A stretch of 794 bases of DNA from Escherichia coli (GTDB taxonomy: Bacteria; Pseudomonadota; Gammaproteobacteria; Enterobacterales; Enterobacteriaceae): the NCBI RefSeq assembly GCF_003334765.1, contig NZ_QOWT01000098.1. The stretch is one strand, 5' to 3'. The notes under the pieces were generated by a model. That model saw only the letters and a list, made by a program, of their open reading frames with translations, was not told where the DNA came from and made no database searches. Of the stretch, positions 1-794 are shown piece by piece. A program made the position numbers and the translations under genes. Within the stretch, counting starts at the first letter, position 1; every line of letters starts with the position of its first letter.

Positions 1-79
1 ATGACTCATGATGAACCCTGTTCCATGGCTCCAGATGACAAACATGATCTCATATCAGGGACTTGTTCGCACCTTCCCT

Positions 80-118
80 AAAATAAACATTGCTTCATAT
101 GTTCAACTATGCGTTAAT
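80..118 (+). promoter_or_regulatory. Predicted sigma70 promoter of the csp gene: A-rich UP-like element (80..89, AAAATAAACA), -35 TTGCTT (90..95), 17-bp spacer, -10 GTTAAT (113..118); predicted TSS about 125..127
   Basis: Hexamers read directly from the sequence with canonical 17-bp spacing. The layout (AT-rich UP tract abutting a TTGCxT -35 and a cTTAAT-like -10) resembles the cspA promoter as I remember it. The predicted TSS sits immediately upstream of the cold-box-like element. Not experimentally mapped. Confidence 0.45.
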
Positions 119-126
119 GATTGCGT

Positions 127-143
127 CGGTTTGAAGAACAGAC
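127..143 (+). promoter_or_regulatory. Cold-box-like element at the 5' end of the leader (CGGTTTGAAGAACAGAC)
   Basis: Sequence CGGTTTGAAGAACAGAC closely resembles the cspA leader start (recalled as CGGTTTGACGTACAGAC), differing only in a central trinucleotide. In cspA this region is implicated in transcription attenuation and autoregulation. Comparison is from memory, not alignment. Confidence 0.5.
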
Positions 144-256
144 GATATACGAAGTAGTTTACTAAAGCAGTTCTCATTTCAGGTGTTATTCACTTATTCC
201 TTCTTTGAGTCTCTCCAATTAAGTACGAAGTCGTTTCTGTTATGCAAACCATTTAT

Positions 257-269
257 GCCGAAAGGCTCA
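257..269 (+). promoter_or_regulatory. Upstream box GCCGAAAGGCTCA, conserved cspA-family leader element; can form a GCC/GGC stem with a GAAA (GNRA) tetraloop
   Basis: Exact GCCGAAAGGC at 257..266, followed by TCA. The cspA, cspB, cspG and cspI leaders share a 13-nt upstream box (GCCGAAAGGCACA in cspA) just 5' of the SD that enhances translation. The short self-complementarity is visible directly. Confidence 0.6.
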
Positions 270-273
270 AGTT

Positions 274-278
274 AAGGA
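274..278 (+). promoter_or_regulatory. Shine-Dalgarno / RBS for the csp CDS (AAGGA), 7-nt spacer to ATG 286
   Basis: AAGGA at 274..278 within TAAGGAAT, optimally spaced to the start codon. Confidence 0.8.
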
Positions 279-285
279 ATGTAGA

Positions 286-501
286 ATGTCAAATAAAATG
301 ACTGGTTTAGTAAAATGGTTTAACGCTGATAAAGGTTTCGGCTTTATTTCTCCTGTTGATGGTAGTAAAGATGTGTTTGTGCATTTTTCTGCGATTCAGA
401 ATGATAATTATCGAACCTTATTTGAAGGTCAAAAGGTTACCTTCTCTATAGAGAGTGGTGCTAAAGGTCCTGCAGCAGCAAATGTCATCATTACTGATTA
501 A
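286..501 (+). CDS. cspB: Cold-shock protein, CspA family (CspB-like), 71 aa, complete ORF with stop TAA at 499..501
   Basis: ORF-track translation [71 protein letters not shown] has the cold-shock domain hallmarks: RNP1-like KGFGFI and RNP2-like VFVHF motifs, and the MSxKMTG(I/L)VKWFN N-terminus. The 71-aa length and the N-terminal MSNKMTGL match E. coli CspB as I recall it, not the 70-aa CspA, CspG or CspI. Start ATG 286 is preceded by SD AAGGA (274..278) with a 7-nt spacer. Paralog identity was not verified by search. Confidence 0.9.
298..312 (+). promoter_or_regulatory. Downstream-box-like motif ATGACTGGTTTAGTA within codons 5-9 of the csp CDS
   Basis: Matches the cspA downstream box (recalled as ATGACTGGTATCGTA) at 12 of 15 positions. 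The element is reported to enhance translation at low temperature, but the proposed base-pairing with 16S rRNA is disputed. It may simply reflect conserved codons for KMTGLV. Confidence 0.35.
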
Positions 502-612
502 AATTCATCGCTCGTCTGTATACGATAACGAAGAAGGCTGATGCCTGAGTAGAGATACGGACAGAGTAGTGAATATTGGATCTCTTTAATAAAAAGTAAG
601 GAGGTCCAATAC

Positions 613-648
613 ATGAAACAATGGCTAGCATATTTGGCAAAATCTTAA
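613..648 (+). CDS. Hypothetical 11-codon small ORF (MKQWLAYLAKS) preceded by a perfect 9-nt Shine-Dalgarno TAAGGAGGT (597..605) with a 7-nt spacer
   Basis: SD TAAGGAGGT is a full complement of the 16S rRNA 3' end and is ideally spaced to ATG 613; the ORF ends at TAA 646..648. No homology is recognised. The call rests only on the exceptional RBS, so it could be a leader peptide, a small protein, or coincidence. Confidence 0.2.
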   Translation: MKQWLAYLAKS

Positions 649-794
649 TCAGGAAAAGTATGCTAACCATTGTGGTGAAGTGCAGGTTTGCTGCATGAAT
701 AGTTTTACAGCAGAAGCTAAGGAAGGTGCGAATAAGCGGGGAAATACTTCTCGGCTGACTCAGTCATTTCATTTCTTCATGTTTGAGCCGATTT

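Follow-up and report, generated by a model that had tools for sequence, protein, structure and literature searches.

A U-less stem-loop at a putative hairpin-capped RNA 3' end in the cspB 3' untranslated region of Escherichia coli

The dominant RNA 3' ends reported downstream of the Escherichia coli cold shock-like gene cspB fall a few nucleotides beyond a perfect 15-bp stem-loop that has no U-tract, and on balance they are best read as a hairpin-capped mRNA 3' end, either related to Rho or produced by processing. The DNA analyzed here, referred to as the window, is a stretch of 794 nucleotides, and the region of interest within it, 502..612, appears to be the proximal part of a strongly folded cspB 3' untranslated region (UTR) that is about 300 nt long in K-12. 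As such, the structure would be a new, unannotated but ordinary case of an mRNA 3' end type already described, the U-less protective stem-loop.

The window contains the cspB locus of a Qin-type prophage between two IS5 ends (1..77 and 721..794). The cspB coding sequence occupies 286..501 on the plus strand, the strand of all transcript features described below, and encodes 71 amino acids; its TAA stop codon is at 499..501, where the original prediction had placed it. The frame was present in the open reading frame list and is annotated in RefSeq as "cold shock-like protein CspB", an annotation carried by the 71-aa frame in more than 1,600 complete genomes. Identity between the window and K-12 MG1655 was 100% and was confined to 78..720. 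In MG1655, cspB lies in the Qin prophage between a Q-type antiterminator gene and the lysis genes, where it is transcribed away from cspF and toward the convergent small gene ynfU. The cspB 3' UTR was found in 1,638 of 5,426 E. coli genomes, in one copy per genome and always with at least 90% identity, and it is also present in a few lambdoid phages.

Both boundaries of the K-12-like segment are IS5 junctions. The right end of the upstream copy (1..77, minus strand) is identical to the annotated IS5 end in E. coli Z226-5, whose reference element is 1,195 bp long and encodes the transposase on the minus strand; in the window, the complementary strand of 7..9 supplies the transposase start codon, the target site CTAA is at 78..81, and the match to K-12 starts at 78. 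At the left end of the downstream copy (721..794, minus strand), 72 of 74 bases are identical to the Z226-5 IS5 left end, and the insertion site is the CTAA at 717..720, after which the K-12 sequence continues with CTGCTGGCATGG. The IS5 terminal sequences, GGAAGGTGCGAATAAG... and ...CTTGTTCGCACCTTCC, adjoin the CTAA at 78..81 and 717..720, and in both copies the transposase is encoded on the minus strand; the ends are directly oriented. A 643-bp segment, comprising cspB, its leader, and 219 nt of 3' UTR, is flanked by these two ends. The shortness of the IS5 stubs, 77 and 74 nt, and the total length of 794 nt suggest an assembly break of short reads at the repeat, and neither junction was found in 5,426 complete E. 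coli genomes, the PLSDB plasmids, or the GTDB species representatives. The upstream IS5 adjoins an AT-rich stretch (ctaaaataaaca, within 78..100) just 5' of the likely cspB -35 region (ttgctt, ~91..96); IS5 insertions 5' of promoters alter expression at bgl, glpFK, and flhDC. In Z226-5 (locus L002, 3586..4784), an IS5 element of the same orientation occupies a different CTAA, at the window equivalent of 663..666 in the 3' arm of hairpin 3 (see below), and the cspB 3' UTR has therefore been struck by IS5 at least twice independently.

The original prediction that 502..612 holds no recognizable intrinsic terminator was borne out, and the same was true up to 720. A consensus scan with a minimum of 5 T among 8 bases returned nothing in 502..679, and an enumeration of hairpins with T-tails over 495..720, scored by a d'Aubenton-Carafa-type formula, gave a best d-score of only -33.5 and no positive site. 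Hairpin 2 (574..611), the stem-loop that immediately precedes the mapped ends, is stable and contains G+C pairs, and it has no U-tract behind it: its tail is CAUGAAAC, with a d-score of -53.5 and an nT of 1.08. The sole positive site in the K-12 locus was the native canonical terminator, AAACCCGCTCAGGCGGGTTTTTTATT (locus L001, 3706..3725; window equivalent 786..799; d +33.5, nT 4.98), which is located 285 nt after the stop codon. This terminator is bidirectional, with a core stem that starts at window equivalent 786, just before the convergent ynfU, and ynfU transcripts end at its hairpin (1641060, plus strand) in the Term-seq data of Adams 2021 (PMC7815308). The IS5 insertion at 717..720 separates cspB from this site, and the native terminator, if it is still present in the source genome, is at least 1.2 kb further downstream owing to IS5. 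When cspB is aligned to the Rfam cspA model (RF01766), the terminator hairpins at the end of the model prove to be either missing or mispaired. A stop codon with no terminator in the next ~110 nt is, taken alone, nothing unusual.

The region after the stop codon was found to be heavily folded, contrary to the earlier description of "only short hairpins" following TAA. Folding of 495..700, a check named in the original prediction, gave -71.2 kcal/mol, versus -40.9 ± 3.8 for shuffled sequences (z = -7.95), and the fold includes a 72-nt hairpin and a perfect 15-bp hairpin. The former, hairpin 1 (503..574), is an imperfect stem-loop of -25 kcal/mol (z -4.0), and none of 200 shuffles folded as well. 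The motif GGC-TGAT-GCC is indeed present at 536..545; rather than forming a short hairpin of its own, it is the tip of hairpin 1. Hairpin 2 is an inverted repeat in which 15 base pairs run without interruption up to a loop of 8 nt (-17.7 kcal/mol, z -6.9), and its stem is unusually long, with an A/U-rich base. Together the two hairpins form a compact RNA (503..616) of -42.9 kcal/mol (z -6.7).

The "strong RBS" noted previously, TAAGGAGGT at 597..605, is a 9/9 match to the anti-Shine-Dalgarno (anti-SD) sequence, which was found in none of 200 shuffles, but it lies wholly within the 3' arm of hairpin 2, with all nine bases paired. The 3' tail of 16S rRNA is UUGGAUCACCUCCUUA, and the arms of hairpin 2 (576..588 and 597..610) mimic an SD/anti-SD duplex, as the 5' arm, UUGGAUCUCUUUA, resembles this tail and the 3' arm, UAAGGAGGUCCAA, equals the complement of the tail minus three bases. 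Among 15 distinct K-12-type sequences, no double compensatory changes were found in hairpins 1 and 2, because these relatives are 97% identical. One-sided variation that preserves pairing affects seven pairs, and a few singletons break pairs: hairpin 1 has four variable pairs, all one-sided with pairing kept, and three singleton changes that each break a pair, and the hairpin 2 variants C88U and G110A both keep their pairing. This pattern is compatible with selection on the two proximal helices and equally with its absence.

The RNA 3' ends were taken from the published Term-seq data for MG1655 (Supplementary file 1 of Adams 2021, PMC7815308), in which the dominant steady-state ends map to 614..616 of the window. 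Position 1641226, which corresponds to 614, had a count of 604,404 (LB, OD 0.4), and position 1641224, which corresponds to 616, had counts of 1,233,565 (LB, OD 2.0) and 2,464,295 (M63); the ends at both positions were classed as "orphan" in that study. Their location in the window was fixed via the printed flanking sequences, the layout of which (50 nt upstream plus 10 nt downstream) was verified on sgrS and other terminators. The caption of the file gives 40 nt upstream, while each printed string has 61 nt and places the 3' end at position 51. Across the three conditions, all at 37 °C, the ends are within 2 nt of each other, and they lie 3 to 5 nt past the base of hairpin 2 and fall on the start codon (ATG, 613..615) of an 11-codon open reading frame. 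A sharp RNA 3' end just downstream of 501 had been put forward as evidence against the original prediction; a sharp end of this kind does exist and counts against read-through, the one departure being its distance of 113 to 115 nt from the stop codon.

The counts at 614/616 were 10 to 40 times as high as that of the 5'-UTR end (206) and exceeded those at the rpsT, dapD, and can terminators among the minus-strand entries examined, a comparison that holds only within one strand, since the minus-strand counts in this data set run at ~25 times the plus-strand scale (lowest values, ~23,469 and ~850, respectively). An artefactual peak is disfavored by the single-copy state of the 3' UTR in K-12. Mis-mapping of 16S rRNA was rejected as a source of the peak, as 16S-like reads would land on the opposite strand and end at 597. 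No further cspB-sense 3' end is present in the curated list between 1640900 and 1641399, either at hairpin 3 or at the canonical terminator; the list has a count threshold, and weaker downstream ends may go unlisted. All RNA data came from 37 °C cultures of MG1655.

The cspB gene is itself a documented target of Rho, which bears on the origin of these ends. Its 5' UTR (125..285) is a cspA-type thermoregulator leader: the match to Rfam RF01766 reached 158.8 bits, above the gathering score of 78 (E = 2e-43), and spans 125..517, and the cloning primer JW10188 of Adams 2021 (PMC7815308) starts at window position 125, which places the start of transcription near this position. The same study reported a Rho-dependent leader 3' end at MG1655 1641634 (window 206), 80 nt 5' of the ATG; a bicyclomycin-sensitive region with its maximum at 1641537 (window 303, early in the open reading frame; Rho score 5.58, p = 1.4e-57); and a >2-fold de-repression of cspB reporter fusions in rhoR66S (Adams 2021, PMC7815308). 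According to the summary of Delaleau 2024 given in PMC12360218, Rho binds the cspA, cspB, and cspG leaders at 37 °C. Given the published end at 206 and the bicyclomycin maximum at 303, cspB transcription at 37 °C is largely aborted 5' of the 502..612 region. The Rho score was computed from 800-nt windows and peaks early in the open reading frame, and the end at 614/616 lies below that resolution. Rho-dependent termination, which the original prediction had offered as an alternative to read-through, is thus consistent with the action of Rho on cspB, but the documented effect is centered on the leader and the coding region.

In the reading favored here, hairpin 2 most likely serves as a barrier that defines the RNA 3' end. 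RNA polymerase would pass hairpin 2 and be released further downstream, by Rho or at the distal intrinsic terminator, after which 3'-to-5' exonucleases would trim the RNA to the foot of the 15-bp helix and leave the ends at 614/616. The resulting cspB mRNA (125..614/616) would be ~490 nt long, with a 3' UTR of 113 to 115 nt. Both trimming, as opposed to direct release, and Rho as the releasing factor are inferred steps of this scheme. The downstream structures weigh against release far away followed by simple trimming: exonucleases should be blocked equally well by hairpin 3 (-19 kcal/mol) and by the hairpin of the terminator, and no ends are listed after either, so that release would have to occur before ~673 or the ends would have another origin. 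In addition, the C/G ratio is 0.47 to 0.90 in 60-nt windows from 607 to 771, a G-rich composition unlike the C-over-G enrichment of rut-like regions, and values above 1 are reached only from ~727 (K-12 coordinates), shortly ahead of the intrinsic terminator.

The absence of listed ends further downstream is, conversely, what would be expected if few polymerases passed 616. It would fit a rather unlikely alternative in which hairpin 2 is a non-canonical intrinsic terminator, or a pause site for Rho loaded in the leader, with direct release at 614..616 and no trimming. The stem is long and perfect, and the ends lie 7 and 9 nt past its G+C-rich core (ending at C607), the usual distance of intrinsic release. 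The tail behind it, AAUACAUGA, however, has only two U, and its d-score of -53.5 contrasts with the +33.5 of the true terminator; furthermore, the end moves between 614 and 616 with growth condition, which suggests nibbling by an exonuclease, and the count threshold of the Term-seq list may hide weaker ends downstream. Trimming to hairpin 2 remains the preferred account.

The sequence beyond 616 belongs to a second structured element, which is shared with phages that lack hairpins 1 and 2. Hairpin 3 (618..673), an inverted repeat of -19 kcal/mol (z -4.4), is its first helix, and one of its pairs shows a compensatory series across phage relatives, from U-A through C.A to C-G. It is followed at 669..720 by the 5' half of a covarying multi-hairpin element that is cut by IS5, as seen in the consensus fold of 12 divergent loci, which include PHB10-type phages without hairpins 1 and 2. 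Three pieces are retained in the window: the long-range helix contributes its 5' strand (669..677), a hairpin is present at 680..696, and a further hairpin (709..727) is represented by its loop and 5' arm. In the consensus, the long-range helix forms between 669..677 and the K-12 equivalent of ~769..777 and encloses three hairpins. Paired positions accounted for 98.4% of the cells in the 12 loci, and 7 of 32 pairs showed double compensatory changes, a number reached in 0 of 500 shuffles, with slid controls giving at most 2. One single-stranded motif, AAAGUGCGUAAG, does not vary among the loci. The IS5 insertion that interrupts the element falls in the loop of the CAGCAG-AAGCTAA-CTGCTG hairpin. 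In divergent lambdoid phages, the element lies between a csp moron and the lysis genes. A search of Rfam (E <= 1) with the window and the K-12 locus (L001, 2200..4300) returned the cspA thermoregulator only, leaving the distal element without a family; matches to isrK, the Trp leader, and P9 were below threshold and were driven by the terminator hairpin. Literature searches for the hairpin sequence or its coordinates returned nothing relevant.

A protein-coding origin of the distal conservation was also considered. A Cys-rich frame over 665..720 is shared with a "hypothetical protein" of phage PHB10, in which a 41-aa product is annotated on the homologue of the distal element (locus L007, 750..875). 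The frame was rejected: the 11 substitutions relative to K-12 (counted by hand) are spread 3/4/4 over the codon positions, a 2-nt indel does not interrupt the conservation, and in-frame stops precede the frame. Given the lack of codon-position bias and the conservation across the indel, the 41-aa frame of PHB10 is probably mis-called over a structured RNA.

The mapped ends fall in the 6-nt single-stranded linker (612..617) between hairpins 2 and 3, and an endonucleolytic cut there, although quite unlikely, would account for their position without trimming or release. Such a cut would part the cspB mRNA from the distal RNA element, and the latter would be degraded or have a separate fate. The end does fall exactly between the proximal module, which is absent from PHB10-type relatives, and the covarying element that begins at 618, and a cut would explain why the downstream hairpins do not mark a 3' end. 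RNase E prefers a U two bases downstream of the cut, and the site ACAU|GA|AAC is unlike this preference; moreover, a stable downstream fragment would yield a 3' end at the distal terminator, and none is listed.

A more ambitious and doubtful proposal is that the cspB 3' UTR consists of two functional RNA modules, a hairpin-capped RNA extending to 614/616 and a distal element of ~150 nt. If this were true, the first module could serve as a stable RNA with a regulatory or decoy role, or could gate the small open reading frame by temperature; its terminal helix places the perfect 9-nt SD sequence opposite an anti-SD-like strand, UUGGAUC-UCUUUA, comparable to the 16S rRNA tail UUGGAUCACCUCCUUA. 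The second module would be a new phage non-coding RNA element running from 618 to the native terminator. The leads of wider interest here are only the covarying distal element and the abundance of the hairpin-capped RNA.

The evidence did not support the view that read-through from the cold shock promoter places the small open reading frame and the DNA beyond 794 under cold-shock control. The frame (613..648) encodes 11 codons, MKQWLAYLAKS, behind the sequestered SD, and none of 1,639 E. coli records annotates it. Relatives carry three substitutions in the frame, L5P, K10I, and S11T, each of them nonsynonymous, and in one phage a G-to-A change weakens the SD while keeping the base pair. As a conserved peptide gene it was therefore rejected, on the grounds that all of the substitutions are nonsynonymous, the SD is fully paired, and the major RNA ends lie on the ATG; 613..648 is probably not such a gene. 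With hairpin 2 formed, the SD would be sequestered in the helix, and most RNAs would stop on the ATG of the frame.

A transcript that is not terminated at all, carrying the small frame and the downstream DNA under cold-shock control, is accordingly very unlikely on the present data. There is no canonical terminator before 720, and the native one has been removed by IS5 in this genome. Proteins of the CspA family are reportedly antiterminators at low temperature, which would also favor read-through. Against this stand the sharp and abundant end at 614/616 at 37 °C, which contradicts read-through at that temperature, if not necessarily in the cold, the SD locked in a 15-bp helix, and the lack of conservation of the peptide. 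The native locus has a terminator and the convergent ynfU as its next features, and therefore no co-oriented gene to bring under cold-shock control; in this genome, the DNA beyond 794 is IS5, antisense to the transposase. Any polymerase that proceeded beyond 616 in the source genome would enter IS5 in this antisense orientation. The same end at 614/616 would be expected in the IS5-flanked strain if hairpin 2 acts as proposed.

The very high 3'-end count at 37 °C, a temperature at which cspB is repressed, together with the compact two-hairpin fold, could also point to an independently transcribed, unannotated small RNA gene at 503..616 whose product accumulates to high levels. This is highly improbable: a consensus scan found no promoter-like site upstream on the plus strand, and the putative RNA has no U-tailed terminator, Rfam match, or annotation in the 1,639 E. 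coli records. The abundance would be explained equally well by an mRNA that is much transcribed but unstable and leaves a stable remnant on decay. A hairpin-capped cspB mRNA end, defined by hairpin 2, is retained as the preferred interpretation.

Several consequences follow for annotation and for this locus. The lack of a U-tract terminator after a stop codon need not mean operon-like read-through, and what looks like a textbook-perfect ribosome binding site may form half of a hairpin at an RNA 3' end. The mature cspB mRNA is likely ~490 nt long with a 3' UTR of 113 to 115 nt, and the end at 614/616, classed as "orphan" in published data, stands out as abundant yet unannotated. In the genome studied here, IS5 has both cut off the native terminator and broken a conserved downstream RNA structure, and with IS5 in place of the terminator, polymerases escaping 616 would make RNA antisense to IS5.

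Among known systems, the closest parallel is provided by Rho-dependent transcripts with precise 3' ends right after stable stem-loops that lack a U-tract (Dar & Sorek 2018, PMC6061677). In the model proposed for that class, diffuse release downstream is followed by trimming by PNPase and RNase II to the protective hairpin, and the sequence downstream of the stem-loop is enriched in C over G in a rut-like manner (Dar & Sorek 2018, PMC6061677). The cspB end resembles these protective stem-loops in lying a few nucleotides past a stable hairpin, in a gene that is subject to Rho, and by both sequence and scoring hairpin 2 has neither a U-rich tail nor an upstream A-tract. It differs from the class in three respects: there is no C-over-G region within ~110 nt downstream, the documented loading of Rho on cspB occurs in the leader rather than behind the hairpin, and equally strong hairpins downstream mark no end. 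In comparison with canonical terminators, such as those of cspA and of cspB/ynfU in K-12, the cspB end shares a stable hairpin and a 3' end 7 to 9 nt past its G+C-rich part, whereas hairpin 2 lacks a U-tract, scores negatively, and has a 15-bp stem with an A/U-rich base. With the cspA mRNA family (RF01766), cspB shares a 5' UTR and coding region that score well above the threshold of the model; in cspA, however, the terminator directly follows the stop codon, while in cspB the hairpins of the model are absent and a structured 3' UTR of ~300 nt takes their place. Finally, like small RNAs of the CpxQ and SroC type that derive from 3' UTRs, cspB has an abundant, stable end within an mRNA 3' UTR; those RNAs end at a U-tailed, Hfq-binding intrinsic terminator, whereas the cspB end is U-less.
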